This document shows positions 27,720-62,958 of a stretch of 64,000 bases of DNA, in pieces. The notes under the pieces are model-generated. The model ran no database searches. It saw only the letters and a program-made list of their open reading frames with translations, and was not told the DNA's origin. How positions within the stretch are numbered: position 1 is the stretch's first letter; each line of letters starts with the position of its first letter. The translations under genes and the position numbers were made by a program. The stretch comes from a virus: the IMG/VR virus record IMGVR_UViG_3300045971_000354, positions 64,001-128,000 of that record. One strand, 5' to 3'.

Positions 27720-27919
27720 GTCTTACCCCACTTAATCTTTAGCCATATTCGTTCATGAATATAATAATCTATACTCAACAACATGTGTAAGATTGTTGCA
27801 AATCCAGTAGATTTTCCGATATCGCCTATTAACAAATATGTCCATAATATTGTGAATAACCACGCCGTTAGTCGGTATGTTATCATTCGTACTATGGTTC
27901 TTTTATGTGTCTCTATCAT
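27716..27919 (-). CDS. Small membrane protein (DUF2061-like)
   Basis: ETHKRT..R..TYR...YYIHERIW.KIKWG pattern, two hydrophobic segments. Confidence 0.7.
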   Translation of the reverse strand: MIETHKRTIVRMITYRLTAWLFTILWTYLLIGDIGKSTGFATILHMLLSIDYYIHERIWLKIKWGKT

Positions 27920-28800
27920 TATGCTAGTGCTGCAAACAAGTGCATCTGAGTTTGCATAATGAGTCCATTTTGCATACAGTACTGCCCAACATACTTGTGA
28001 TTAGCTTCGTTCTTGGCCATATTTAAAAGGCCGGGCTCCCACCAAGAAATTACTTCATCTACAGTACTTCGTTCTGCTATACTGATTGCGCCCTTTTCAG
28101 CACGTAACAGTTTAATCTTTTGAGGGAAGTCGTTGTACACATTCATCGGAGAACAGTAAATATCCTTACCTGTGTTAGCTTTCCATTCCAATGCCCAGTC
28201 AGGGACTGTGTTGTACGGAGTATTGGGATCTGCACTAATAACAAACTTTAAAACATTTGCTCGTTCTAAGATTGTCTTGCCTGGTTTTAGATACCGGGTA
28301 GGAGCTTTACCAAACTCTGCACATTTCGGTGAGCAAACAAGCGTAACACCTTCTGGTACCACTGTGTCGGGAATACCGTTGCTTTCGACTTGAACTGCTT
28401 TGAATACATCGCGTTGCTTATACATAAAATCTGTAATGTTTTCTTGCAACAATGGTTCGCCACCTGTCATTACCAATACAATATTAGGAAATAACCCTGT
28501 ATATGGATTTTGTGGAACTGCCCATTCTGGTGCAGTCTGACCTTTGTTAGTCCAATATGCTTTGATAGTCTCATCCATCTTATCTGCAATCTGATCAAAC
28601 GTCATCCAATCGCCGTCGTCAAAGAATGTGTCGCAGAATGAGCAATCTAAATTGCACTTTGCAAGGCGGATGAATAACGCAGGCATACCGGCATACGGTC
28701 CCTCTCCTTGCAGCGTGAAGAACATTGACGTAACAAATAAACTATCTTTAGGTGCGTCTCGAAAAAACTTCTTTCCGATCACTTCGTTGGTTCCAAAAAT
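27919..28800 (-). CDS. queE: 7-carboxy-7-deazaguanine synthase (radical SAM); probable ATT start
   Basis: F.TLQGEG..AG.PALFIRLAKCNLDCSFCDT, TGGEPLLQ, ESNG, CSPK, Q.H. The frame extends from the GTG at 28782 to ATT at 28800 with AAGGAG 7 nt upstream. Confidence 0.88.
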   Translation of the reverse strand: MFGTNEVIGKKFFRDAPKDSLFVTSMFFTLQGEGPYAGMPALFIRLAKCNLDCSFCDTFFDDGDWMTFDQIADKMDETIKAYWTNKGQTAPEWAVPQNPYTGLFPNIVLVMTGGEPLLQENITDFMYKQRDVFKAVQVESNGIPDTVVPEGVTLVCSPKCAEFGKAPTRYLKPGKTILERANVLKFVISADPNTPYNTVPDWALEWKANTGKDIYCSPMNVYNDFPQKIKLLRAEKGAISIAERSTVDEVISWWEPGLLNMAKNEANHKYVGQYCMQNGLIMQTQMHLFAALA

Positions 28801-28801
28801 T

Positions 28802-29062
28802 TTAATTCTCCTTAATTGTATCGAGCCACATGTGCTCAGTTACTTTGTACATTTCTAGTACATTAATATGCATGACTAACAATTTTTCATTAAGAGACAA
28901 CCAATCTAACATTGCTTGTGCATCCTGCCGACGACTAAACCGCATTGCTTTATTAGCATCTGTACTAAACTCTACCGAGTTAATAGGTCCACCAACAAAC
29001 CATTCAGGGCGTGACGCAGGGTGAGGTAAGTTAAGTTCAATTAGCCAAGCAATTTCATTCAT
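28802..29062 (-). CDS. Hypothetical protein
   Basis: Start MNEIAW with SD AAGGAG. Confidence 0.6.
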   Translation of the reverse strand: MNEIAWLIELNLPHPASRPEWFVGGPINSVEFSTDANKAMRFSRRQDAQAMLDWLSLNEKLLVMHINVLEMYKVTEHMWLDTIKEN

Positions 29063-29063
29063 A

Positions 29064-29354
29064 TTAAATCTCCTTAATTCCAAAGTGTTCTTTAATACAC
29101 TCAGTTGCTTCATATATGCCGTTAACAATGCCGTCTTCGTACATCGCTAATGTTTTATCTTTTGGTTCAGATTCTAAATATTTTGCATGATTTTCACTTA
29201 CGTTAATGCATTCCCGAACAATCAGCTCGGCGAACTTTTCCGCTTGCTCATTTGTGACAAAGTAATCTCTATCTTCAATGAGAGTTCGGGGATTGCCACC
29301 TAGAACATATCGCCACCCTGCTTGCTCAGCAAGTTCTTTAATTCGTTCGTTCAT
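29064..29354 (-). CDS. Small phage protein, MNERIKEL...EKFAELIVREC family
   Basis: Motif shared with 29737..30015 and 62332..62550. Confidence 0.7.
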   Translation of the reverse strand: MNERIKELAEQAGWRYVLGGNPRTLIEDRDYFVTNEQAEKFAELIVRECINVSENHAKYLESEPKDKTLAMYEDGIVNGIYEATECIKEHFGIKEI

Positions 29355-29355
29355 A

Positions 29356-29562
29356 TTATTCCTTAATCAATGTAGCGGACATTACTTTTGATAAACGGCC
29401 TACTGTTACTGTCATTTGATATTGCTGGCCTTTTTCTACTGTGTCAATATCTATTCCTGGCGTATCCTTGTTAAAGGAATATATCCAATCATCGTCTGTC
29501 CTAAGGTGAACTAACTTGAATCCTTCTAAGACTTCAAGCACTGTGCCAATAACTTCTTTCAT
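29356..29562 (-). CDS. Hypothetical protein
   Basis: 68-aa ORF, ATGA coupling. Confidence 0.55.
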   Translation of the reverse strand: MKEVIGTVLEVLEGFKLVHLRTDDDWIYSFNKDTPGIDIDTVEKGQQYQMTVTVGRLSKVMSATLIKE

Positions 29563-29735
29563 TTGTCCTCGTACTTCACAAGTTTAACATCAAACTCGTC
29601 GGCAAATGCTTCCGCTAATGCTGCGGTTAATTGTTCGGTTAATTCATCACATCCGGTTGCATTAGTTGCAAGCAACTCTTCCCAGAACTCGTGATTGCCT
29701 TCTGTAATAGTTAACTCGAATGTGTAGCGTTTCAT
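29559..29735 (-). CDS. Hypothetical acidic 58-aa protein (not in ORF track)
   Basis: MKRYTFELTITEGNHEFWEEL...KYEDK fills the gap exactly. Confidence 0.6.
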   Translation of the reverse strand: MKRYTFELTITEGNHEFWEELLATNATGCDELTEQLTAALAEAFADEFDVKLVKYEDK

Positions 29736-29736
29736 A

Positions 29737-30015
29737 TTAGTTAACTGGTTTGAACGAGTCTAGTATGACTGTGTCTGTTCCGAAGCTTTGCCCTGTTGAA
29801 GATAAAATATGATCAACTGCACGTCGAGCACATTCTTTGATAACTAGCTCTGCAAACTTTTCAAACACAATGTCAGGAATAACTAACACGCCTGCATCTC
29901 GTGCTAGCTGAACAATGTTCCCTGCAGTTTTTTGCGAGACAGAAGATGATTGATCTAATGTTGTTAAATATTCTCTGCTTGCTTGGCTTGCAAATTGATT
30001 AAGTAAATCATTCAT
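29737..30015 (-). CDS. Small phage protein, EKFAELVIKEC family
   Basis: FEKFAELVIKECA motif. Confidence 0.65.
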   Translation of the reverse strand: MNDLLNQFASQASREYLTTLDQSSSVSQKTAGNIVQLARDAGVLVIPDIVFEKFAELVIKECARRAVDHILSSTGQSFGTDTVILDSFKPVN

Positions 30016-30398
30016 TGTTTATCCTTTTTATAATTACCTTTACCTGGGATAGTGTTTCTAACGCCACCTACAGGATCTTCAACATCACCATTCCTCCGAG
30101 GAATCATATGAATATGCGGCCACATAACAGTTTGTCCAGCAGCTTCGCCGTAATTCATTCCAATGTTAAATCCATCCCATGCTCCACCATCTACTCCGTT
30201 CTTCCCGTGTTCTACTGCATCAGTAAATGCTTCATACAAAATGCTTATAGTGTTATATTTAGGCACAAAGAGCAAGTGGCCTTCTGTACACGGATATTTG
30301 TCTCTGAAAACGATTACATGAAAGTCGTCTCGAATAACATCATCCCACGGTGCTGTTGATTCGCTAATATGGTTTGGACCATTAAAAATTTTATTCAT
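30012..30398 (-). CDS. HIT-family nucleotide hydrolase
   Basis: D.YP..GHLLFVPK, GFNIG.N.G.AAGQTV.WPHIHMIPRR.GD (first His of the triad replaced by W). Confidence 0.85.
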   Translation of the reverse strand: MNKIFNGPNHISESTAPWDDVIRDDFHVIVFRDKYPCTEGHLLFVPKYNTISILYEAFTDAVEHGKNGVDGGAWDGFNIGMNYGEAAGQTVMWPHIHMIPRRNGDVEDPVGGVRNTIPGKGNYKKDKQ

Positions 30399-30754
30399 TT
30401 CTGACTATCTCCTGGAAGTACACGGTAATTGTCTTCGACACTATCCGGTGTGCTAACTTCAATTATAGTGCCTTTTTCAATACAAATCAACTGGTGTGGC
30501 TCTAGCGGCAAGTTACGCCAAACATCACCCTTTGATAAAACTGTTTCTTGCTGCGATGCATCTTTAGTAAGAATACTTACCACTATGAATTTTCCATCAA
30601 GCACATACCATGATTCATCTTTTTCAGCATGAAAATGCATACTGAATTTTGCACCAGCATTAAAATTCATTAGCTTACCACAATACTTGCTGTTAGTTGC
30701 CCAGATAAGTTCTGAACCCCATCCTTTTTCTACGCTTCCTGTGAGTCTTGTCAT
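30395..30754 (-). CDS. Cupin (mannose-6-phosphate isomerase-like)
   Basis: KGWG.E, SMHFH..KDESWYV..G, PHQL, EVST. Confidence 0.75.
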   Translation of the reverse strand: MTRLTGSVEKGWGSELIWATNSKYCGKLMNFNAGAKFSMHFHAEKDESWYVLDGKFIVVSILTKDASQQETVLSKGDVWRNLPLEPHQLICIEKGTIIEVSTPDSVEDNYRVLPGDSQK

Positions 30755-31293
30755 TTTAGCCACCAATTACTATATGGAAATTCTACTGATAAATCATCCT
30801 CTACGGTGTTGACCTCAACTCCGGTAAAATCCATTTTTACATTACATTTACTAGCAGTATTATCAACTACTACTGCAAACTTAACATTCTTATTCCATAC
30901 ATCCGCCCATCGAGAATGATTAGGTAAACACCCGCCTTGCCAATCTTCCACAAGCCAATTGAATGTTTCACCTGTTCTGTTAATATCATCAACTACAAGG
31001 ATATTTTTATTCAATTCGGGAAGTGTTCTAACGGTGTTAGTAGGCACTGGAAGTTCGTCACCTTCGTAAGGCAAGTACCCAAATGCATCTTCTGCAACCC
31101 ATAAATTACTCTCATCTTTGTTTAGAATTTGTAGAGGAACATTGAAGTACTGACTAATTAGTAGCGAGGGATATAATCCTCCGCCGTTAATTCCTACTAT
31201 GTAATCAGGCCTCCAACCACTGTTAGTAATCTCTCGGCAAATGCTTGAGATTATACTTTGATATTCTTGATGATTAAGAGTGAGCTTGTTCAT
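30751..31293 (-). CDS. Type I phosphoribosyltransferase (xanthine/guanine PRT-like)
   Basis: PDYIVGI.GGGL.P, PRPP-binding loop ILVVDDINRTGET, C-terminal FPY..WW. Confidence 0.85.
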   Translation of the reverse strand: MNKLTLNHQEYQSIISSICREITNSGWRPDYIVGINGGGLYPSLLISQYFNVPLQILNKDESNLWVAEDAFGYLPYEGDELPVPTNTVRTLPELNKNILVVDDINRTGETFNWLVEDWQGGCLPNHSRWADVWNKNVKFAVVVDNTASKCNVKMDFTGVEVNTVEDDLSVEFPYSNWWLK

Positions 31294-31747
31294 GTCGATC
31301 CTTTAAATATTTTTCGTGATTGATCCAGTTATTATTGACCAGGAATCCCCAATCTCGTTTATGTGGACCGGGCATAAACAACGTCCAGGCAACAACTCCT
31401 TCTTTTAGTTCAATACGGTGATAACTCTCGGGTTTACAAATACGAAAGTGTCCCGGACCTCGCCAGTGTTGAGTCTCTCCTACTTTTAATCCGTTTGCAA
31501 ATACAGGAGTCCATTCATAGTATCCGCCTTTAAGGATAAATGTAGCATATGGCCACGGATGATCATGCATATCATCTGGATCACCTTTAAGGAACTTATG
31601 TAAGAACACATTAAATGGAAACGCCTTTCGATCTTTAAGGAACAGATAATATCGTTCCAAGTAAGGCTTATTACAGACACGATCCATAATAGTGATCTTT
31701 CGACCTCTTTGATCCATCCAGTTTAAAAATTTGTTAGTAAGTGTCAT
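31274..31747 (-). CDS. Cupin-like protein (HDHPW family)
   Basis: YLERY..F.HKF..D....HDHPW...ILKGGY.E...HRIEL..WTLF..G...WGF. Confidence 0.7.
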   Translation of the reverse strand: MTLTNKFLNWMDQRGRKITIMDRVCNKPYLERYYLFLKDRKAFPFNVFLHKFLKGDPDDMHDHPWPYATFILKGGYYEWTPVFANGLKVGETQHWRGPGHFRICKPESYHRIELKEGVVAWTLFMPGPHKRDWGFLVNNNWINHEKYLKDRHEQAHS

Positions 31748-31916
31748 CTTGTGATTTGCAAAGTTCTAAAGTGTTTTTAAATTGATTCCACGCATTTTCT
31801 AAAGTTGGAAACTTTTTACAAAGCCTTCCGACTTGTAGTGGATCAGTTTTGTATTTGAGATAAATCTCATGTTGATCATCTGTCCAATCATCACTGTCCT
31901 TGTGTACTGTAATCAT
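31734..31916 (-). CDS. Hypothetical protein
   Basis: 60-aa ORF coupled to neighbours. Confidence 0.5.
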   Translation of the reverse strand: MITVHKDSDDWTDDQHEIYLKYKTDPLQVGRLCKKFPTLENAWNQFKNTLELCKSQDDTY

Positions 31917-32296
31917 GAAGCCTTCAACGCTTCGATTGTAATGATCTTAGAAATCTCAGTCCCAAGGTCCATGTCGTCATGTATAACATACAATCCAATA
32001 CCCGAGGTATCCTTGCGACGATTATACATTTGTGTTTCGATAATTGTACCGCCACGTGCTTTAATAACTTTAAATCGAATTGCTTGCTCAGACGCAATTT
32101 CGTCTGCTCGAGCAGGTTCTAGCTGTAGCCCTTGTACTTTATTCGCCCCACTTGTATTAGGATTAATATCGCTATTCAACCAGTTACGAACTCGTTGTTT
32201 AAATGTCATCGGTTTCTTTTCCGCGGTAATTGTATTATAATACTTTGGTTCGTATTCTGCTTTTGCAGAAGAAACTCCGATTAATTGTCCGTTCAT
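31913..32296 (-). CDS. Hypothetical protein
   Basis: ATGA overlap with folE stop. Confidence 0.65.
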   Translation of the reverse strand: MNGQLIGVSSAKAEYEPKYYNTITAEKKPMTFKQRVRNWLNSDINPNTSGANKVQGLQLEPARADEIASEQAIRFKVIKARGGTIIETQMYNRRKDTSGIGLYVIHDDMDLGTEISKIITIEALKAS

Positions 32297-32991
32297 CTTG
32301 GTGCCCATCCTTGTTGTAATGCAATGTTATCAAAAAACTCTTTCTTTACGCTAGCATCTTCTTTAAAAGCACCTTTAAGTACAGTTGTTTGTGTTAGCGA
32401 ACTATGCGCCATAATGCCCCTATTCTCGCAGCATCCATGTGTTGCTTGAATATAGACTGCTACGTTGTCGCTGCCAGTCGCTTTGCTAATCTCTCTAGCG
32501 ATATCATTACAGAGTTCCTCTTGTAAAGTACCACGGCGAGCACACCACTGAGCAATACGAGAATACTTGCTAAGACCAATGAGCTTTTGAGCGGCAATAA
32601 TACCAATATAAGCAACGCCGTTAACAGGCTGATGATGATGTGAACACATAGAACGGAGCTCACTACGTACAACCAACATACCTTCGTATCTATCTTGGCT
32701 ATCGTTTGGAAAAGCCGTTGCATCTGGTTCTCTTTCATATCGTCCACTCATTACCTCATTAAAGTACATTTTTGCAAGGCGTTTTGCTGTGCCTTTACTA
32801 TTAGGATCGGTTTCACGATCGATCAGAAGTGCATCGAGTACACTTTCAAATGCTGTAGTTGCTTCTCCGATTAATCTGGCTTTATCCATTTCTGAAACAT
32901 ATTCAGAAATATTATCGCCTGCCCAGAATCGCTTATTCTGCGAACGCATGTGATCGCGAATTACCTGTGAAAGGTTTTTACTATTTTCCAA
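32293..32991 (-). CDS. folE: GTP cyclohydrolase I
   Basis: T.KR.AKMY, SMCSHH, IGLSK..R, QE, H.C...RG motifs; TTG start with GGAGA SD. Confidence 0.93.
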   Translation of the reverse strand: MENSKNLSQVIRDHMRSQNKRFWAGDNISEYVSEMDKARLIGEATTAFESVLDALLIDRETDPNSKGTAKRLAKMYFNEVMSGRYEREPDATAFPNDSQDRYEGMLVVRSELRSMCSHHHQPVNGVAYIGIIAAQKLIGLSKYSRIAQWCARRGTLQEELCNDIAREISKATGSDNVAVYIQATHGCCENRGIMAHSSLTQTTVLKGAFKEDASVKKEFFDNIALQQGWAPR

Positions 32992-33035
32992 TTTTATTAT
33001 TCTCCGATGTTAAGCCAGTGGATTGGCATATAGCT

Positions 33036-33064
33036 AGTATACAGATTTATTTAGGATCTTGCAA
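33036..33064 (-). promoter_or_regulatory. sigma70 promoter TTGCAA-17-TATACT with TAAATA in the spacer
   Basis: Read directly upstream of folE. Confidence 0.6.
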
Positions 33065-33850
33065 CCTTAGCAACGTATTTTTCTTTACTGCGGCATCCAC
33101 TATATTCATATTCAATTCTAGATCTGCTGCAAATTTTAACAATGCAGAAGTATCTTTCGGGAAGCATGCTCCACCGAATCCATATGCTCCGTCCGGCCCC
33201 GGAACTTGCATATGACTCTTACCAATTCTAGGATCTGCTTTTACTAGTTCGGCAACCAATTTGTAATTACAATCTAATGAATTTGCCAACGCTTCTATTT
33301 CGTTCATAAACACAACCTTGGTTGCCATGAACGAATTAATTGTGTACTTTGCTAGAGATGCTTCCGCAATTGAGCAATACCGAATTGATTTTAAACTTGG
33401 CTGACTAATTTTTATTACTCGCTCTGCTTCGCGCATATACGCACTAACATTTCCACCGATGAATGCAAATTCTCCGTTGGCATAATCTTGCACTGCATTT
33501 GCCGCAGTTAAAAACTCTGGTGCATGCACTAAGTTAGGAAACCGTTCTTGTAATTTAGAATAGGTAGCCGGCGGCGCCGTGCACTTACTAATAATTACTC
33601 CTCGGTACTTTACATCATTTAGCTCTGCTAATACACTTTCCAATGGACCAGTATCGCATGTTCCGTCTGTACTTTGCGGAGTAGGAACAGATATAAAAAT
33701 TGCAGAGCAATCCTTTAGTTCTTCGTATGTTGCGTTTAATCCTTTATATGGATCACGCAAAACAACAGGCATCGTTATAGAATCAAATGACTGCTTAATT
33801 GCCCCGCCTACAAACCCTAATCCAATGATACCGATCTTTTCATTATACAT
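33047..33850 (-). CDS. UDP-glucose/GDP-mannose dehydrogenase family (short form)
   Basis: Rossmann GIIGLGFVG, FISVPTP, PEFL, K...N...ATKV.F.NE, GFGGACFPKD (catalytic Cys). Confidence 0.9.
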   Translation of the reverse strand: MYNEKIGIIGLGFVGGAIKQSFDSITMPVVLRDPYKGLNATYEELKDCSAIFISVPTPQSTDGTCDTGPLESVLAELNDVKYRGVIISKCTAPPATYSKLQERFPNLVHAPEFLTAANAVQDYANGEFAFIGGNVSAYMREAERVIKISQPSLKSIRYCSIAEASLAKYTINSFMATKVVFMNEIEALANSLDCNYKLVAELVKADPRIGKSHMQVPGPDGAYGFGGACFPKDTSALLKFAADLELNMNIVDAAVKKNTLLRLQDPK

Positions 33851-34926
33851 TATGTTATATTTCCTAAAAGTACATCTGCGTTAAAGAAATATTTAGACAA
33901 ATCTTCAGTTTGTTTTCGCAATTGTGGCAGACGTTTTATGTAATGCGTCATGGTAACAATAATGTGGTGACACAACTCTTGTCTATGTACTGTATAGCTA
34001 TCCCAATCTTTGGTCCATTCACTTGGATATTTAAATCCTTCGTGATACATTTCGGAATATGAAAGGCGATCTGGTACCATAGGTATAGCATCAACTAACG
34101 CCCCTTCGTAACATCCGATACCTAGTGTTTCTTGTAGACTTGCGCTAAACACAATCTTCGATTGACCTAGCAATGTATGATATTCTTCTTTGCTAAGTTC
34201 CTGATCTTGACAAACAATAAACTCGTACTGTGGTAATAATGTTGCAAGATCTCTAAAAATTTCAACCTGCTTTTCGGGCGCAATACGATGCGGAAACAAA
34301 ATAAGATCATGCTTTGATAAAGTTTTATATGGAGTAAGAGTTTCTTCCATATACTCCATTGGCCAACCAGTTTGCACAATTTTTTTATCGTATTCTGGTT
34401 TCCACCCTGTGATACGAGTCTTGCCATCTTGTAATAAATTATTTACAAACATTTCAATATGAAACTTAGTTGCAAAGTAGTTGAAATCTATTGCATGATA
34501 CAACGCTTTTTCGGTATGCCTAACCCAAGGAGCATTTCCAATCAATCGACCTAAAAAGTCTTGAGGATCATAACTGCCGGCGTGCCATAGTGCATGAATA
34601 GTAATTGGGATTTCCAATAACTCACTCATATACTTTAGGTTAATTATACCAGGATGCCATGCGTCAGTAAAAATAAAGTGGTCGCCCCCACGAATGGATC
34701 CGTCGCAAAACATACGGCCCATTTGCTCAACCTGGTTAGACTTATATACATTAGTCCCACCAAAATTGAGAAAAGCACCAGGAGTGGTAGCAGCAGGAAT
34801 ATCAGTAGGACCGGAAATAATTTGAACATTGAAGCCAGCCTTCTTAAAGAGAGCAGGTACACGAGACTTCCATTGTCCTGTGTACCTGGTACTCACCGCC
34901 TCTATATCGACGATGAAAATTGTCAT
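33850..34926 (-). CDS. GT-B fold glycosyltransferase
   Basis: FPHRIAPEKQ, SASLQETLGI...EG...P..LSY.E resembles the GT-B EX7E-type donor-binding region. Confidence 0.7.
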   Translation of the reverse strand: MTIFIVDIEAVSTRYTGQWKSRVPALFKKAGFNVQIISGPTDIPAATTPGAFLNFGGTNVYKSNQVEQMGRMFCDGSIRGGDHFIFTDAWHPGIINLKYMSELLEIPITIHALWHAGSYDPQDFLGRLIGNAPWVRHTEKALYHAIDFNYFATKFHIEMFVNNLLQDGKTRITGWKPEYDKKIVQTGWPMEYMEETLTPYKTLSKHDLILFPHRIAPEKQVEIFRDLATLLPQYEFIVCQDQELSKEEYHTLLGQSKIVFSASLQETLGIGCYEGALVDAIPMVPDRLSYSEMYHEGFKYPSEWTKDWDSYTVHRQELCHHIIVTMTHYIKRLPQLRKQTEDLSKYFFNADVLLGNIT

Positions 34927-35147
34927 TAGGACTCCTGGCGTTCCTTAGACTCGCGACGGGCCTTACGTTGCAAGAACTCTTGCGTCCGTTGCCAATCCTT
35001 ATACGCCTTGGATCGATACAGATCCGCCTGATCGAAAGCGATCATTTCAAACCGGCAATGATCATGCCACACATCAAGATCAGCAAAGATCTTGCTTACT
35101 TCTGGCTTCATAGTCAGATACTTACCGAGCCACTTTGGTGCTGCCAT
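34926..35147 (-). CDS. Hypothetical protein
   Basis: 73-aa ORF with AGGA SD, coupled to the GT gene. Confidence 0.6.
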   Translation of the reverse strand: MAAPKWLGKYLTMKPEVSKIFADLDVWHDHCRFEMIAFDQADLYRSKAYKDWQRTQEFLQRKARRESKERQES

Positions 35148-35162
35148 TTTTGTTTCCTATTA

Positions 35163-35543
35163 TTAAAAAGGATTATTAGAAAATTGAAGATATGCGCCAT
35201 TCTCGCCATCTTCGCTCACGTCAACCCAAACCTCACGATTTGGGTATCTTGCATTGATTGTTGTGTTTAGATCACGTGCAATCATTTCGCAGGATTTGAA
35301 ATCTAGCTCGAGTGTGCCGTCATTGTAGCAATTCTCAAGCCAGCGTTTAAATTGGATGAATTCAATATCTCGGTCGTCGTGTGTTACTGCAATCCAGACT
35401 TTGAAGTGAAAAATATGTCGATGCGGGAATCCCAGGAAGCTTACATCGGCAAGATTAATTGCGTCGGCCGCAGCAGGGTAACAGTGTATGCCTTCCTTAC
35501 GAAAGGTTACCCAAATCATTGATAGTTTATCGTTTGGTCTCAT
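35163..35543 (-). CDS. QueD-like T-fold protein with LxxxHRHxF motif (DpdL-like)
   Basis: EGIH.YP, LGFPHRHIF, DRDIEF, SCEM, SEDGENGA; lacks the QueD CxxxHGH motif. Confidence 0.7.
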   Translation of the reverse strand: MRPNDKLSMIWVTFRKEGIHCYPAAADAINLADVSFLGFPHRHIFHFKVWIAVTHDDRDIEFIQFKRWLENCYNDGTLELDFKSCEMIARDLNTTINARYPNREVWVDVSEDGENGAYLQFSNNPF

Positions 35544-36070
35544 TTGATGATCTTGTCGTTAGAGTATTGATCCCAAGATGTAAACTTACTACGATCTTTA
35601 AGATCGTGCAAGCTGTGTGACCATACACCTGGGTTAGTTGCTTTGAAATCCTTGTCATCAATTTTAATCATTGTGTTGTAGTTCCACAATTTGATGTAAG
35701 GAATAGGAACACGAATTTGCGGAATAAAATTATCAAATTCGTTCAAGCCGTTATCGTTAAATTCTTCTACCAGATGTAGAGGAATGTCGAGACTACACAG
35801 ATATCCCTTCTTAAGGAAATCAATTATCATGTTTTCCCAAGATTCCCAGGATTCAATATCAGTAGTATCAAAGTTGAAGCTATGATTTGCGCCAAAAAAG
35901 ATATGCTTAATAGCAACTCCGCACATAGTGAGCTTCATTGCAATATCTGTAATAGGTTGCACACCAGTTACAAACAATGTATCCATACCGTGTGCAGGGG
36001 TATGTTCCACCTCTACTCCAGTGAAGAATACAATGTTCTCTGCTTTGCCTTCTGTATAATCTCGTTTCAT
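35540..36070 (-). CDS. Hypothetical protein of the deazaguanine cluster
   Basis: 176 aa, G.EVEHTP.....TLFV.G, FFGANHSF, KIDD.DF.ATNPGVW. Confidence 0.7.
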   Translation of the reverse strand: MKRDYTEGKAENIVFFTGVEVEHTPAHGMDTLFVTGVQPITDIAMKLTMCGVAIKHIFFGANHSFNFDTTDIESWESWENMIIDFLKKGYLCSLDIPLHLVEEFNDNGLNEFDNFIPQIRVPIPYIKLWNYNTMIKIDDKDFKATNPGVWSHSLHDLKDRSKFTSWDQYSNDKIIK

Positions 36071-36076
36071 GCTACT

Positions 36077-36105
36077 AGTATAGTATATTTTACGTTATTT
36101 GTCAA
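36077..36105 (-). promoter_or_regulatory. sigma70 promoter TTGACA-17-TATACT, 6 nt before ATG (leaderless)
   Basis: TTGACA aataacgtaaaatatac TATACT agtagc ATG. Confidence 0.75.
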
Positions 36106-37741
36106 GCAAATCTACAAGATTTTGCAGCTTTTCATCTTCGGGGTCTTCCAAATCAACTTCATTAGATTTGGTAACATTTTCTACTTCGAACAAATTCATA
36201 AACTCGTTTTCAGCATTTCCGCCCTGCATTCTAGAACCTTCAAGTGCTTTTAAGAAAGGCGTTGCTTGATCGATTAGTGCAAACGCATCTGCTTTAGTTG
36301 TAGTATTAAATAATTCTTCAATAAAGCGGTCGAAATACAAAATGTTTCGTGGAACCCAATCGCTATATTCATCACTAGCCGCATCTTTACTTCCTAATTT
36401 ATTCCAATGTTTCCATTTAATAGTATCACGAGTTTTTGCAATTTCGATATCCATTAATTGTTGAGCACGTTGAACAGCTTTAATATGGCATTCGACATTA
36501 TGCCCCATCATCAATGCATACGCAAAGCTATCCCAGGAAGTCTTATTAGGAATCTTATTAAGTTTATTAAGCTTTGGCGGAACATGATAGTGCGATACAT
36601 TTAAGTGATCAAACTTGACAAGTTTCCCGTCTTTGCCTGTTAATTCGGCATCTGTTTTGCGTTCGCCTAAATCGTAGTAGCAAATATCGCCTACGGTTAA
36701 CCGACGTCCAGTCTCGCTTTCAAACGGGAACGGTATGTCGGAACCGGAAAGGGCTTTGTTGTCGAATCCTTTGTCCATAATAACGCTCCAACGCTTTGTA
36801 GTGTGTTGCGCGTTTGTGTAGACAAGTCCGTGCGCCGTTGCGATGAATGGGGATGCGCAGTCAAAAGAGATGGTAAGTTCTTCATTGATATGTTTCCTGA
36901 TTTGTCTTTGAATTAAGGTTAAGTAACAACTCCAATCTAATTGAGCAGTGCCCAAGAAGTGGATCCAATTTTTGCCTTTCAGCAAACCATCTTCACGCAA
37001 GGTCATAAGACGCTTTAACGTAATATCCATTTTGCACATGTTGGCGCCTCCGAATGCCCAACCTTCGGCAGCTTTATCGCCCCAAACCGCAGGATCACTA
37101 AACTCTTTAACGCCATTGTACCAATCTTCTGCAGACTGCCAGTCCCATCCTTGCAACACGTTAAGGAACTTTGTTTGTCCTAGCCGGTTCTTTAGGAAAT
37201 ACTCGTTGTTAAACTTTGTCTTATCCAAACAGTCTTGGACCGACTTTAGTCCAGTCTTCGGACTGTGATTGTGATCACACGCCCAGGTTGGGACGTCAAG
37301 CATCATTGACCAATCTGCTGTTAGCTCAAGCCAATTTAGAATGTCGTCGCGGGTTTTGTTTGCCTTAACTCCTTCGAAGTCTAGCCAATCAAATTTTAGA
37401 ACGCCTTTACCAATTTGGTATCCGCCGGAGTCTCCGAGAATCATAGTGTTCCCACGATCACGTTGTTGGATCATTGACTCCTGCGTCATACTCTTTGTAA
37501 GATCTAACTGTGCGTGGCCCGCAGAGTAAAGACCATATTTGTATGTGAAATATCCCTGTTCAGGATTTAAGAAGTTCATACCTTCGATTCCGCGATCAAA
37601 GCCGGCGGGAATACGATTTTTTGGAACAAACTCTTCTAGTCGCTGTTTAGCAACATAGGTACTATAGAAGCTAGAGATTGCTGGAAGAAATACTGCGTAA
37701 TCTCTCTGTAGAGGGGTTAAATTAACTGGTGGATTTGTCAT
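36095..37741 (-). CDS. TGT-fold guanine transglycosylase-like protein (DpdA-like)
   Basis: GDSGGYQ, MLDVP, LNVLQG, HFLG, SFDCASP correspond to TGT/DpdA core motifs; lies with folE/queE. Confidence 0.75.
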   Translation of the reverse strand: MTNPPVNLTPLQRDYAVFLPAISSFYSTYVAKQRLEEFVPKNRIPAGFDRGIEGMNFLNPEQGYFTYKYGLYSAGHAQLDLTKSMTQESMIQQRDRGNTMILGDSGGYQIGKGVLKFDWLDFEGVKANKTRDDILNWLELTADWSMMLDVPTWACDHNHSPKTGLKSVQDCLDKTKFNNEYFLKNRLGQTKFLNVLQGWDWQSAEDWYNGVKEFSDPAVWGDKAAEGWAFGGANMCKMDITLKRLMTLREDGLLKGKNWIHFLGTAQLDWSCYLTLIQRQIRKHINEELTISFDCASPFIATAHGLVYTNAQHTTKRWSVIMDKGFDNKALSGSDIPFPFESETGRRLTVGDICYYDLGERKTDAELTGKDGKLVKFDHLNVSHYHVPPKLNKLNKIPNKTSWDSFAYALMMGHNVECHIKAVQRAQQLMDIEIAKTRDTIKWKHWNKLGSKDAASDEYSDWVPRNILYFDRFIEELFNTTTKADAFALIDQATPFLKALEGSRMQGGNAENEFMNLFEVENVTKSNEVDLEDPEDEKLQNLVDLLDK

Positions 37742-38087
37742 GTTCTGTACTTAATATAATTGTAGCATCTAATTGCAGTTTTGCCTTTTCTAAATTCTCC
37801 ACCGCAATCTTTACAGCAGGATGTGTATCAGCCAATGTTTTTAGATTTGCTTCTTCGATCATTTTTTTCATGGCCCAATCGAGCGCCGCTTCTGAAGAAG
37901 GCACTATACCAATTGATCCAAGGGATCCGTTGACTGTTACCCATGACGCACCGTCGTACACCTCGAAGTTGTTATTTCTATAACGCACTAATCCAGCACT
38001 CGGCGCACCGTCGTTAATCCATATACTAGTAGGACCACCGCCTGACACATTAAGATGCTTACTTGTACTTGTTAATGCAGTTATCAT
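37722..38087 (-). CDS. Hypothetical protein
   Basis: 121-aa ORF coupled to the clamp gene. Confidence 0.6.
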   Translation of the reverse strand: MITALTSTSKHLNVSGGGPTSIWINDGAPSAGLVRYRNNNFEVYDGASWVTVNGSLGSIGIVPSSEAALDWAMKKMIEEANLKTLADTHPAVKIAVENLEKAKLQLDATIILSTEHDKSTS

Positions 38088-38821
38088 TATGCTTGTGCTG
38101 GAATGATGTATTTGTAAGTAGCAATACCACTATCGAGTTCGATTTGCATTGCACCGTCATTACTAATGCTAAACTTAGTATTATTGGCATCTGCAATCTT
38201 TAAAATGCTCAATACCTGGCTCACTGGCCATGTCCACGCCTTATTAAGCTTTCCTGTAACATCAGTTGCAAATACAAATTCGCCACCGTGTGTACTTTGA
38301 TCACCAAAGATAAACTTTAGATTCCCATCTTCAACCTTAGTTAAGAATGTTGCGTGTTCGCTGTTCGCCGCCGCTTGAAAGTTGAACCGCTGAATAGCGG
38401 AAACTGTCGGGTTAACTTCAACGTGCCAATTCACTCCACGGAACTTAACAGTCTTCAACTTCTCGTTAATAATTTCAGTGTTCATGAAACGATAGTCGTT
38501 CTTGAAGTCACCTGCCTTGTTTTCAAAGTGCAACCCTACCGGAATCGTATCACCGTTGCGATCTGCACTAACAATTTCAATTGTTGCATCTTCGCGATAT
38601 TCTGGACAGTCTAAATGAATCTTCAACTTATTAAGTTGTGGCATACCAAATACGCCCTTCATTTCTAGTTGTGGTTTATTGACCTCGCCATACATAATAA
38701 CACTACGGTCATCTGCCATGGAGTCGATTTTTGTGGACTTGTCTTCACCTGTAATCTTAACGATGTTAAGAAAGCCTAGATTGTGTGTATGTCCAACGAT
38801 GTCTTTAAGTAAGTCTTGCAT
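38087..38821 (-). CDS. Sliding clamp (gp45/PCNA-like)
   Basis: 244 aa, two-domain beta/alpha pattern ending YKYIIPAQ, directly downstream of PolB; clamp loader also present. Confidence 0.65.
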   Translation of the reverse strand: MQDLLKDIVGHTHNLGFLNIVKITGEDKSTKIDSMADDRSVIMYGEVNKPQLEMKGVFGMPQLNKLKIHLDCPEYREDATIEIVSADRNGDTIPVGLHFENKAGDFKNDYRFMNTEIINEKLKTVKFRGVNWHVEVNPTVSAIQRFNFQAAANSEHATFLTKVEDGNLKFIFGDQSTHGGEFVFATDVTGKLNKAWTWPVSQVLSILKIADANNTKFSISNDGAMQIELDSGIATYKYIIPAQA

Positions 38822-38874: not shown

Positions 38875-41544
38875 TTATTCAAAGTCAAATAAATTTCCAA
38901 AGTTATTGTCTTGCGTAGTTGAGTCCAAGTCCCATTCTAGCACCCCAATAAGATTTTCTAGTTTGTTGTTGATAATAGTAGTTTCCATTTCAGAATGCTC
39001 AAACGGAAGATCTTGAAACCACTTTGGTAAGCGTAATTCATCAACCGGATACGCAACACTGCTATATCCCAACGGATTTTCTTTCATCTTGCAAACAATA
39101 ACTTTCATACCGTCTACAATATTAACGGAGTATTTGTCTCCGTTCATACGCTTCAATGTATTCCAATTGATTGATGCTCTAACGTGCCCTGGCATATTTG
39201 CCTTGCCGTATTTCTTTTCCTTTGCTTCGTATTCTGCAATATTATTTGCGCGTTTTGGACTACCTTTTTCCCAACCTGGCCGCGCCTTAAACTCTGTTCG
39301 GAATACTGAAATCATTTCTAGAATCTCTTTTTCTTCGGTACCGTTGAGTACCTTTGTTAGAATTTCTTCAAGGAATTTCTGCATAAACTCAGGAGTATCA
39401 CTGCGCTTTAAGTCAAGCCCCATCGCTTTAATCTTACCGGGCTTATCACCGGTGTCTTGTCGTTTGCCGTCCTTATCGTAGTACAAAACCGCATATCGCT
39501 TCTTAGTAATGAATAAGCCCTTAATAGCAACTATTTCTCGTCCTGCTTTAATAACTTCGCCGCGCGTTTTTGGGCAATGAAAGTCATCTAGCATGAATTG
39601 CGGGAATGTTGCATTTACTTCGTCGGCAATCTGATCATACAGTTGGATAACGGTATCTTTATTCCACGGAATTAATCCCTTCTGAATGTCTTTCTTCAAT
39701 GTATTGTATGCGCTGAAGTAAACAGAGTCAGTATCACCGTAGATTACGCTCTTTCCTATGTAATCGTAGTCGCCTGTAATGTATTCATTTACTTTGCCGG
39801 CCATATGACGAGCAATGCGTCGCCCTGTGAGGGTGGTTGATTGACCAATTCGATTGTCGAAAAAACGACAACCAGCATTAAGAATAGCACCATACAGTGA
39901 GTTAAGGTTAATTTTCTTAACCAGCTGGCGCTTGTCCCAATACTCTTCTTCAATTTTGTTGCCGGCATTAATTGCATCCTTTAGTTTTGCTTGCATTTCT
40001 TTACGTTCTTTGTACCAACGCTTTAGCAAGCCCGGAATAATTCCTTCTTTTGCGTATGTAAAAATAGTTCCGTTTGCACTTAGCATCCACGGCTGATTAC
40101 TTTCAAATATCATTTCGAATATTTGTGCACCACTTAGTACATCGGTACTTCCATCTTCCCAATCAACAATAATATCGTGTGATTTATCTTGATCCATAAC
40201 AAATTCGTATTCGTTACTACCGAATTTCCCTTCCCACGCAGCGGCAAACGAATTTCCCTTCGCTATCTTTGCATCAATTTCTACTTTTGTGTACTCGGGA
40301 CGTAATTGTCCGACAATTGTTTCGGGTCCCATGTTTAATGCACGAATTGCAGATGGATACAGAGAGTTAATATCCATTGATCCGATCCAATCGTGGATAC
40401 CTTTCTTCGGATACGCAACATATGCACCTGCGGCCTGCGAATCTACTTCGCTATCACGACTACGCCGACTTGGAACAATAAGACCTTTTGCGTGGGCTTC
40501 GTTAATAATCGCTTGCTCAGTAACAGCAACAGCACCCATCGTTGTTTGAATCAACACAGTGTTTTCGTGCGCTACTGTATTTGCAAGGTCGATAAACTTT
40601 AGCTTACGGTCTAACTTTTCTAACAGCATTGTATCTTGTCGATTATATTCAATAAACTTTTTAAAGTCGTTGTTATATAATTGATCAAGTGTGCCTTCGT
40701 ATGCTGTCTTATGTTCCCCTAGCTCGTATTCTGCAATAGCATCGAGTCTAAAACTATGACGTTCTTCATATGTGTACTTACGATACAGTTCCAAACTATC
40801 TACGTGAACGCGACCGATCAAGTCGTATGTTACCGCAGCTTTACCGTACTTTTCGTATTCGCGTTTCTTAGGGAATTGATTCCATAAGCACAATCTGCGA
40901 GTGTCGTCTTTACTCAACGCCTTGATAACGCGATTAACAGTGTACGGCATATCGAAGCCTTCGCTGTTCCAACCACTCATCACATCTGCATCTTCAATAA
41001 GATTCAAAAACATATCAAGCATTTCTGCTTCTGTTTCGTACAAGATTGTGTTTGGAAACTCTTTAACTGCGTCCTTTGCCTGCGCCATTGTTATTGTCTT
41101 TGGAGGTACTGCTAAACATACCAGTGTTTCTAACCATTGTAGATACACTGCGATTGCAGTAATGGGCATGAATGCATCTTCAGGACTTGCGTATCCACGT
41201 TCGGGATCGAAGTCTACCTCAATGTCCCAAAAAGCTACATTTAGTTTTGGGGAGTCTTTACCTAGATAGTTTTCTTCCAATACACGAAATACTGGATTAA
41301 TGTCGCTTTCGAATAGTTTTCGATCGCCGTGTATTTTTAGTTCTTTTGCATGTTCTTTCCAACTTTTGCTTACTACTCTGCTTAGTTGGTCACCAAATAG
41401 ACTTGTATACTTTCCCTTCTTATCGGGCTGGTAAAACATATACTTTGCCGGAAACTGCTGGTATACTCGATTACCTTTTACATCGCGTTCGACGACAGAT
41501 ACGATATCTGTCTCGCGGTCCCACCGTGCATCTACATAACTCAT
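38875..41544 (-). CDS. Family B DNA polymerase (gp43-like)
   Basis: Exo DIEV, GWNSEGFD, YNRQD; Pol DINSLYPS, KINLNSLYG, YGDTDS, KKRY. Confidence 0.97.
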   Translation of the reverse strand: MSYVDARWDRETDIVSVVERDVKGNRVYQQFPAKYMFYQPDKKGKYTSLFGDQLSRVVSKSWKEHAKELKIHGDRKLFESDINPVFRVLEENYLGKDSPKLNVAFWDIEVDFDPERGYASPEDAFMPITAIAVYLQWLETLVCLAVPPKTITMAQAKDAVKEFPNTILYETEAEMLDMFLNLIEDADVMSGWNSEGFDMPYTVNRVIKALSKDDTRRLCLWNQFPKKREYEKYGKAAVTYDLIGRVHVDSLELYRKYTYEERHSFRLDAIAEYELGEHKTAYEGTLDQLYNNDFKKFIEYNRQDTMLLEKLDRKLKFIDLANTVAHENTVLIQTTMGAVAVTEQAIINEAHAKGLIVPSRRSRDSEVDSQAAGAYVAYPKKGIHDWIGSMDINSLYPSAIRALNMGPETIVGQLRPEYTKVEIDAKIAKGNSFAAAWEGKFGSNEYEFVMDQDKSHDIIVDWEDGSTDVLSGAQIFEMIFESNQPWMLSANGTIFTYAKEGIIPGLLKRWYKERKEMQAKLKDAINAGNKIEEEYWDKRQLVKKINLNSLYGAILNAGCRFFDNRIGQSTTLTGRRIARHMAGKVNEYITGDYDYIGKSVIYGDTDSVYFSAYNTLKKDIQKGLIPWNKDTVIQLYDQIADEVNATFPQFMLDDFHCPKTRGEVIKAGREIVAIKGLFITKKRYAVLYYDKDGKRQDTGDKPGKIKAMGLDLKRSDTPEFMQKFLEEILTKVLNGTEEKEILEMISVFRTEFKARPGWEKGSPKRANNIAEYEAKEKKYGKANMPGHVRASINWNTLKRMNGDKYSVNIVDGMKVIVCKMKENPLGYSSVAYPVDELRLPKWFQDLPFEHSEMETTIINNKLENLIGVLEWDLDSTTQDNNFGNLFDFE

Positions 41545-62595: not shown

Positions 62596-62958
62596 TTATT
62601 CTAAAAACGGAGCAAGTTCCGGTGCAGTCCATCCGACTGGTTTGAGAACTTTACCATCTTCTCGTTTTCGAACCTTTCCTGTTTCTTTATCAATTTTGGC
62701 AAAGTTAGTTTTCATAACTTCTTTCCAAGCACCTTCTGCATCAAATCCGGCACTATGAATTGCCCCAATTGTAACAACTAGTATATCGATTAATGCATCA
62801 AGTTGTTCTAACTTGTCGTTTGCTTCAAGTGCATCGTTTAGCTCAGTATGTTCCTCATCAATTAACTTGATGTACATATCGTATTGCGCTTGATTAAAGC
62901 CTTCAACACTTTGGTCGCAAGCTCGCATAAATGTTGCTTGATCACGGAACGGATTCAT
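62596..62958 (-). CDS. MazG-like/all-alpha NTP pyrophosphohydrolase
   Basis: LIDEE..EL......DALID...V, W.EV..TN.AK...R.DGKVLKP.GW. Confidence 0.85.
   Translation of the reverse strand: MNPFRDQATFMRACDQSVEGFNQAQYDMYIKLIDEEHTELNDALEANDKLEQLDALIDILVVTIGAIHSAGFDAEGAWKEVMKTNFAKIDKETGKVRKREDGKVLKPVGWTAPELAPFLE

Follow-up and report, generated by a model that had tools for sequence, protein, structure and literature searches.

The 7-deazaguanines known from phage DNA bear small groups at C7, and no report of a glycosylated deazaguanine was found in the searchable literature, in agreement with the original prediction for this DNA that the known phage deazaguanines carry no sugar. The window analysed here (the whole stretch of 64,000 nucleotides, bases 64001-128000 of the 143,463-bp IMG/VR viral contig IMGVR_UViG_3300045971_000354) contains at its positions 27919-37741 (minus strand) a cluster in which predicted genes for synthesis and insertion of a 7-deazaguanine stand together with the gene of a GT4-type glycosyltransferase. 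The cluster is read here as a module of the DpdL type for modifying DNA with 7-deazaguanine that includes its own decorating enzyme, which would give glycosylated 7-deazaguanine, and the probability of this reading is put at about one half. Clusters of the DpdL type are known; their obligatory association with a GT4-type enzyme is, as far as we found, undescribed in papers.

The nearest described counterpart is the DpdL/DpdA3 system of phage phiST, whose DNA carries plain 2'-deoxy-7-deazaguanosine (dDG; PMC10516641). DpdL is the proposed decarboxylase of 7-carboxy-7-deazaguanine (CDG), in which the CxxxHGH motif of QueD is changed to LxxxHRHxF (Cui, Hutinet et al., NAR 2023, PMC10516641), and in the published view the insertion of deazaguanine follows replication (PMC10516641). 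When dpdA and dpdL of phage ACP17 were expressed in E. coli no dDG was obtained, which led the authors to propose that further enzymes may be needed (PMC10516641). The DNA of phage PA5oct resists five restriction enzymes, from which its authors inferred a modified G whose structure was not identified (PMC12191111). Like phiST, the phage studied here has FolE, QueD, QueE, a protein with the DpdL motif and a divergent TGT-like gene, lacks QueC, and keeps these genes next to those of replication. Unlike it, phiST is without the glycosyltransferase (hidden Markov model E > 0.1), the 176-aa protein named here g176, the phosphoribosyltransferase (PRTase) and the dehydrogenase, and carries MazG and an AAA_18 kinase-like gene instead; its DpdA3 has 259 aa against the 548 aa of the window protein. 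Closer in content are PA5oct (Wroclawvirus), ACP17, Xanthomonas X1 and BUDD, Burkholderia BCSR5, Sinorhizobium Phosso and Synechococcus BUCT-ZZ01, where the glycosyltransferase (24-51% identity) has DpdL, a TGT-like gene and QueE as neighbours. PA5oct also shares the PRTase and a small NAD-Rossmann protein, and in ACP17 the glycosyltransferase gene lies between dpdA and dpdL. The clusters of these cultured phages differ from that of the window in gene order, and none has the dehydrogenase core.

Three other systems join a sugar to a related acceptor. The alpha- and beta-glucosyltransferases of T-even phages glucosylate 5-hydroxymethylcytosine in DNA. The likeness lies in a phage GT-B enzyme that uses a UDP-sugar to add a second, optional layer to a non-canonical base in DNA; the difference lies in the pyrimidine hydroxymethyl acceptor and in other glycosyltransferase families, to which no sequence relationship was detected here. 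Animal tRNA contains mannosyl- and galactosyl-queuosine, where the sugar is likewise placed on a 7-deazaguanine derivative after TGT has inserted it into nucleic acid, but the nucleic acid is RNA and the sugar sits on the cyclopentenediol of queuosine, which the pathway of the window cannot make. The UDP-glucose:tetrahydrobiopterin glucosyltransferase BGluT (5zes, 9v0l) resembles the window enzyme in its GT4-like fold and in taking its substrate from the FolE/PTPS branch. It differs in not being the best match, in an identity of ~10-14% and in having a pterin side-chain hydroxyl as acceptor.

The CheckV completeness of the contig is ~40%, and this value together with its length points to a jumbo phage with a genome of ~350 kb as the source; absences from the contig, such as those of QueC and of a hydroxymethylase, are therefore provisional. 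The genes that had been named for 27919-37741 were all found there, on the minus strand after the DNA polymerase gene PolB, and those at the core of the cluster are as follows.

36095-37741, minus strand: TGT/DpdA-like predicted base-exchange enzyme, 548 aa (AlphaFold2 model and family profile)
35163-35543, minus strand: DpdL, QueD-like T-fold protein, 126 aa (phrog_17812; motif LGFPHRHIF)
33850-34926, minus strand: GT4-like retaining GT-B glycosyltransferase, 358 aa (AlphaFold2 model, EX7E motif)
32293-32991, minus strand: FolE, GTP cyclohydrolase I (Pfam, E 3e-40; NCBIfam folE, E 9e-41)
27919-28782, minus strand: QueE-like radical SAM CDG synthase (phrog_2076, E 6e-44; TLQGEG and CNLDCSFCDT motifs)

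The T-fold gene, earlier called QueD-like, is a DpdL and not a QueD. It has the characteristic LxxxHRHxF motif (L-GFP-HRH-I-F), and in an alignment of eight DpdLs with three true QueDs the position of the QueD cysteine is leucine in the DpdLs, H41, E86 and E111 being common to both. The protein is 35% identical to the DpdL of phiST and 56% to that of ACP17, within a range of 54-67% for ACP17, PA5oct and Phosso. A true QueD is encoded outside the window, at contig positions 142946-143335 (PF01242, E 1e-16). The QueE-like protein matched the NCBIfam QueE models below their cut-offs and is 42% identical to the QueE of ACP17. Thus, FolE, QueD, QueE and a DpdA-like gene accompany DpdL on the contig, on which QueC was not found. 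The identities of FolE, QueE, DpdL and the TGT-like protein support the view that this is a 7-deazaguanine DNA-modification cluster. Because the T-fold gene is a DpdL, the predicted base is 7-deazaguanine, giving dDG-type DNA like that of phiST, and not CDG or preQ0.

The 548-aa protein had no match in Pfam, PHROG, NCBIfam or a PDB sequence search. Its AlphaFold2 model (pLDDT 89.4, pTM 0.90) has the TGT-type (beta/alpha)8 barrel fold, the top 50 Foldseek matches were all TGTs (E 2e-6, probability 1.0), and VIA-align superposed it on T. maritima TGT over 307 residues with Z 19.0 and rmsd 4.4, the results for ArcTGT and QTRT1 being similar. An HMMER scan of 1.84 billion representatives returned 879 related clusters, and D104-S-G-G-x-Q109, D149, H261 and D294 were invariant or nearly so in an 87-member family alignment, the first motif reading D104-S-G-G-Y-Q109 in the window. 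The family profile matched Z. mobilis TGT weakly (E ~0.6), yet 34 of its 36 matches were TGTs. The profile alignment placed DSGGYQ onto TGT D102 and D149 onto TGT D156; D294 lies within an FDC motif and was assigned to the TGT nucleophile D280 through the shared FDC, C281 following directly after D280 in TGT. The putative general-base, nucleophile and base-binding aspartates, the last of which would read the 2-amino-4-oxo face of the base, are thus, as shown by homology, all kept, and these three residues together with the Foldseek result uphold the TGT/DpdA-like assignment that had been proposed for this gene. No conserved cysteine cluster was seen among the invariant columns of the alignment, in which no dedicated search for the zinc site CxCxxC...H was made.

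When compared by hhalign, the family matched the 424-aa DpdA candidate of ACP17 with 96.7% probability (E 3e-10) and the "queuine tRNA-ribosyltransferase" of Xanthomonas X1 with 94.8%. The match to phiST DpdA3 was marginal (83.9%, E 8e-6 over 84 columns; BLASTP E 1.8) and poorer than those to ACP17 and X1, and the protein was not filed as DpdA3. A member of the same family was also found in the 349-kb Vibrio phage 2.275.O (MG592671.1, 330216-337242; E 5e-98 to the profile), where it adjoins QueF, a YhhQ-type preQ transporter, QueC, an amidotransferase and FolE. This suggests that the Vibrio protein is an unrecognised DpdA of a preQ1/G+-type system; the 370-aa gene that follows it is not that of the glycosyltransferase. 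The family therefore stands beside both DpdL-type and QueC/QueF-type synthesis, which is the distribution expected of the inserting enzyme, and we infer that the window protein exchanges guanine in DNA for 7-deazaguanine.

In metagenomes the family is represented by thousands of clusters at 90% identity. Distant members (~30% identity) were seen on two bacterial-looking contigs (L090:1440-2885 and L091:8001-9209), each adjoining an unannotated ~560-aa protein, with an integrase or transposases close by and with neither the glycosyltransferase nor DpdL in the neighbourhood; these may represent a bacterial island with the same base-exchange family. A further contig (L092:200-2837) encodes, in this order, a TGT-like protein of 622 aa (30% identical), a 77-aa open reading frame and a PRTase homologous to that of the window (E 1e-10), and this is a third independent lineage in which the two predicted enzymes are paired.

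The 358-aa protein likewise had no match in Pfam, PHROG, NCBIfam or a PDB sequence search. PF00534 (Glycos_transf_1) gave nothing for it and 19-21 bits, below the 26.4 cut-off, for the ACP17 and PA5oct homologues, and several metagenomic homologues carry a precomputed match to this family. The AlphaFold2 model (pLDDT 93.2) shows the two Rossmann domains of the GT-B fold, and a Foldseek search of the PDB returned retaining enzymes of the GT4 family (E 2e-10). The VIA-align Z scores were 26.2 for sucrose-phosphate synthase, 24.9 for BshA and 24.6 for MshA, and lay between 21 and 26 over ~300 residues when PimB' and others were included; the nearest viral model in BFVD was that of the ACP17 homologue (TM 0.9). 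R214, E218, K219 and E266-x7-E274 (EX7E) were invariant in homologues from five phages and then in 71 sequences, so the donor site has both the EX7E motif and the diphosphate-holding basic residues. The family profile also matched the glucosyltransferase 8xsg in the PDB (E 6e-6), and the N-terminal acceptor domain has many invariant aromatics (Y15, W19, F52, W90 and Y119). From the fold and the invariant EX7E, the protein is apparently a genuine and intact GT4-type enzyme, as the glycosyltransferase call made for it had implied. This family, too, is represented in metagenomes by thousands of clusters at 90% identity.

The remaining genes, together with PolB at the head of the string and the gene that follows it, are needed for the comparison with related loci and are listed here.

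38875-41544, minus strand: PolB, family-B DNA polymerase at the head of the gene string (Pfam DNA_pol_B, E 2e-38; exonuclease domain, E 1e-15)
38087-38821, minus strand: 244-aa protein at the sliding-clamp position (phrog_12062, E 1e-36; the Phosso homologue is annotated as sliding clamp)
35540-36070, minus strand: g176, 176-aa conserved protein (20 invariant alignment columns)
34926-35147, minus strand: g73, 73-aa basic protein, isoelectric point 9.2 (its stop overlaps the glycosyltransferase start)
33047-33850, minus strand: nucleotide-sugar-dehydrogenase core, 267 aa (Pfam UDPG_MGDP_dh N-terminal and central domains, E 1e-14 and 3e-22)
31274-31747, minus strand: cupin, 157 aa (phrog_4786, E 5e-36)
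30751-31293, minus strand: type-I PRTase, 180 aa (Pfam Pribosyltran, E 6e-10; weak HGPRT and APRT matches)
30395-30766, minus strand: second cupin, 123 aa (Pfam Cupin_2, E 4e-6; phrog_7851, E 8e-38; weak WbuC-family match)
30012-30398, minus strand: HIT-family (HinT-like) nucleotide hydrolase or transferase (Pfam HIT, E 4e-9; NCBIfam HinT, E 2e-12)

The linkage of these genes was followed in two sets of 80 loci each. The first consisted of close relatives with 68-77% glycosyltransferase identity, 39 of which span the region from PolB to an RNase H-like gene. The 244-aa gene, the TGT-like gene, g176, DpdL and the glycosyltransferase were present in 39/39, in the same order in most and with DpdL before the TGT-like gene in four. 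The other genes were found in fewer of the 39: g73, FolE and the 157-aa cupin in 34 each, the PRTase in 28, HIT in 24, the dehydrogenase core in 22 and QueE in 8. The second, diverse set was collected with the Xanthomonas X1 glycosyltransferase as reference and falls into seven clusters at 50% identity; here DpdL lay at most 4.5 kb from the glycosyltransferase in 77 of the 80 loci, with a median distance of 1 kb. Among cultured phages, DpdL also occurs in each of the 18 records that match the glycosyltransferase over its full length (the PA5oct group, Phosso, ACP17, X1, BUDD, BCSR5 and BUCT-ZZ01), and the glycosyltransferase immediately adjoins the TGT-like gene in PA5oct, ACP17, X1 and BCSR5. 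The reverse does not hold, as DpdL without a glycosyltransferase nearby was found in the phiST group, RHph_I1_18 and Ahp1, and the TGT-like family without the glycosyltransferase and with QueC and QueF in Vibrio phage 2.275.O. Genetic locking of the glycosyltransferase to the cluster across at least seven divergent lineages is thus supported. As the glycosyltransferase implies DpdL and not the reverse, the pattern is that expected of an optional enzyme working on the DpdL product, and most likely it acts downstream of DpdL. The co-occurrence across phage genomes that had been proposed as a check therefore came out for the glycosyltransferase and failed for the dehydrogenase, which is facultative (22/39, and 6/80 in the diverse set).

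These results together allow the following course of events to be proposed. FolE, the QueD encoded elsewhere on the contig and QueE would, by homology, convert GTP to CDG, and DpdL would process CDG, by the published proposal through decarboxylation to 7-deazaguanine. The TGT-like enzyme would then swap guanine in the phage DNA for this deazapurine, and the GT4-type enzyme would put the sugar of a nucleotide-sugar on the DpdL product. The sugar would most likely be added once the base is in DNA, by analogy with all known glycosylations of nucleic-acid bases (glucosyl-5-hydroxymethylcytosine and glycosyl-queuosine). As guesses, the 157-aa cupin may create an acceptor hydroxyl or the bond may be an unusual one; the sugar is perhaps held through such a cupin-made hydroxyl or through a C-glycosidic bond at C7. 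Guanine set free by the exchange may be returned by the PRTase to GMP and GTP, from which the pathway itself starts. A tentative prediction, which we hold at somewhat under even odds, is that the DNA of the phage group of the window and of PA5oct, ACP17, X1, BCSR5 and Phosso carries glycosylated 7-deazaguanine made by the GT4-type enzyme on the DpdL product.

Several points weigh against the glycosylated base. The acceptor atom is the weak point, for 7-deazaguanine has neither a hydroxyl nor an amine at C7. The nearest structural neighbours of the glycosyltransferase (sucrose-phosphate synthase, BshA, MshA, LmbT and the pterin glucosyltransferases) use small soluble acceptors and not DNA. Neither the glycosyltransferase (isoelectric point 6.0) nor the TGT-like protein (5.6) is basic overall; charge was considered as a sign of DNA binding and set aside as not informative. 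The decarboxylase activity of DpdL is an unproven proposal in the literature as well, a PRTase in the cluster would also fit a nucleotide-level route, and the absences of QueC and of a hydroxymethylase carry the provisional status given above. The glycosylated base is predicted from genes and models. Thus, of the idea that a sugar is attached to the deazapurine, the intact glycosyltransferase and its linkage to the cluster stand, and the lack of an obvious acceptor hydroxyl and the small molecules used by its neighbours count against it.

The alternative that survives best, though we think it rather unlikely, is that the glycosyltransferase works on a small molecule of the pathway (free 7-deazaguanine, CDG or a pterin), the sugar being removed or never entering DNA, which would then contain plain dDG as in phiST. 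A pathway that begins at FolE and pterins, an acceptor domain rich in invariant aromatics, and best structural neighbours that are small-acceptor GT4 enzymes, the tetrahydrobiopterin glucosyltransferases 9v0l and 5zes included, are what such a role would lead one to expect. But GT4 folds are all alike, and the two pterin enzymes rank only 16th and 26th in Foldseek (E 2e-8 to 2e-7). A transient sugar would be without known precedent in deazaguanine pathways, and the gene usually adjoins the TGT-like gene, not FolE or QueD.

The PRTase bears on a second alternative, in which the base would enter before replication. Here the PRTase would join CDG or 7-deazaguanine to phosphoribosyl pyrophosphate (PRPP), kinases and ribonucleotide reductase would make the deoxynucleoside triphosphate (dNTP), PolB would incorporate it, the TGT-like enzyme would be secondary, and the glycosyltransferase would decorate the base afterwards or act on the nucleotide. 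PRPP coupling is used by TubE and ToyH in the biosynthesis of tubercidin and toyocamycin. The gene occurs in 28/39 close relatives, in 47/80 diverse loci, within the PA5oct cluster and beside the TGT-like gene of L092; an HIT nucleotide hydrolase is adjacent, and the cluster comes directly after PolB and the clamp-position gene. We nevertheless regard this course as quite unlikely, for the TGT-like protein is universal and retains both catalytic aspartates, whereas the occurrence of the PRTase is facultative and the clusters of ACP17, X1 and Phosso lack it. No guanylate kinase was found on the contig and the MazG-like match there is sub-threshold only, and the published view places insertion after replication (PMC10516641). 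The PRTase may serve guanine salvage to GMP and GTP or a tubercidin-like nucleotide-level route, and its facultative distribution favours an accessory role.

The original prediction had gone further and read the dehydrogenase as a member of the UDP-glucose-dehydrogenase family that makes a UDP-uronic acid, which the glycosyltransferase would transfer to give a uronosylated deazaguanine; this now appears improbable. The two genes overlap by one base, and the 267-aa protein has NAD-binding and central domains with GxGxxG, PEFL and GFGGACFPKD, keeping the catalytic cysteine and the Lys and Asn region, so that the family assignment holds for the N-terminal and central parts. The NCBIfam match, on the other hand, stops at about model position 294 of 413, and the UDP-binding C-terminal domain PF03720 is missing from the protein; it was sought elsewhere on the contig, as the product of another gene, and was not found. 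The same domain is missing from essentially all copies in 41 relatives, nearly all of which have 256-307 aa, which makes this a stable short form and not a broken gene. For want of the C-terminal domain the protein was not filed as a UDP-glucose dehydrogenase. With the core absent from 17 of the 39 close relatives, placed at three positions in the others and present at 6 of the 80 diverse loci, a UDP-uronic acid donor is unlikely. Within the proposal of a glycosylated 7-deazaguanine the UDP-domain-less dehydrogenase would be an optional extra of the sub-lineage to which the window belongs, where it might oxidise the DNA-bound sugar.

Least probable of all is a glycosyltransferase unrelated to deazaguanine, acting on the host envelope, on virion proteins or on another modified base, as GT4 enzymes commonly do in phage genomes and as the weaker match in Xanthomonas phage PhiXhv-12, which sits with GlmS and a deacetylase and not with Que genes, might hint; against it are the tight, lineage-crossing linkage to DpdL, the lack of a thymidylate-synthase-type hydroxymethylase on the contig, and the distance of the PhiXhv-12 protein, which falls in another clade and has 25% identity over 69% of the length. 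A hydroxymethyl-pyrimidine was set aside as acceptor, as no thymidylate-synthase-like gene was found on the contig, which is incomplete. The PhiXhv-12 locus (PV764601.1, 120910-124144), in which the distant GT4 relative accompanies GlmS and a BshB-like N-acetylglucosaminyl deacetylase, looks like an amino-sugar-based phage pathway unrelated to the Que genes.

The genes of the cluster all lie on the minus strand and read from PolB downwards, and the overlaps of 1-20 nt at most junctions agree with the translational coupling that had been claimed. A promoter-like TTGACA-17-TATACT (11/12 matches) is present at 36105-36077 (minus) before g176, at the place where a promoter had been predicted, and an identical twin lies at 38867-38839 (minus) before the 244-aa gene. 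Both occupy the sole sizeable intergenic gaps of the gene string and rank highest among the sites of the scanned 14.5 kb, in which the total number of sigma-70-like matches was not above that in shuffled sequence. Megablast of the region against phage records gave no nucleotide-level match. PolB shares 49-51% identity with the polymerases of PA5oct and Phosso. The PA5oct gene is annotated as two parts with a gene for a Hef-like homing endonuclease between them (L002:5605-10831), and PolB of the window is uninterrupted.

The g176 protein found no match in Pfam, PHROG or NCBIfam and no usable match in the Atlas, and a PDB profile search gave chance matches only. Among the cultured carriers a homologue occurs in ACP17 alone, directly upstream of the TGT-like gene; the "glycosylase" at this position in Phosso was considered and is not homologous (18% identity). 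No match was found for g73 in Pfam, PHROG or NCBIfam. The 157-aa cupin comes directly after the glycosyltransferase in most relatives and has a faint likeness to cysteine dioxygenase, the Atlas giving leads only (0.78-0.82 to CDO_I), and the second cupin occurs in 0/80 close-relative loci. Between HIT and QueE, at 28802-30015, lie small open reading frames (58-108 aa) that the 80 close-relative loci lack; most relatives have a 132-aa gene directly after HIT or FolE, and their QueE is found elsewhere. A 141-aa open reading frame at window positions 62689-62880 (minus; contig 126689-126880) gave the sub-threshold MazG match (E 0.013) and may encode a dNTP pyrophosphohydrolase with a part in controlling the nucleotide pool.

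If the proposal of a glycosylated 7-deazaguanine is true, it would be, as far as we found, the first case of a purine in DNA that carries a sugar. Such a deazapurine would represent a new chemical class of DNA base and would have consequences for restriction enzymes, for CRISPR and glycosylase-based defences, and for the chemistry of sequencing. The idea offers an explanation for the failure of ACP17 dpdA and dpdL to give dDG in E. coli, and for PA5oct, a phage of therapeutic interest, it would suggest what the structure of the modified G might be. As several carrier phages have been cultured, the idea can be tested directly. Since the TGT-like protein and the glycosyltransferase both occur so widely in metagenomes, a large share of the DNA of freshwater and marine jumbo phages could be affected.

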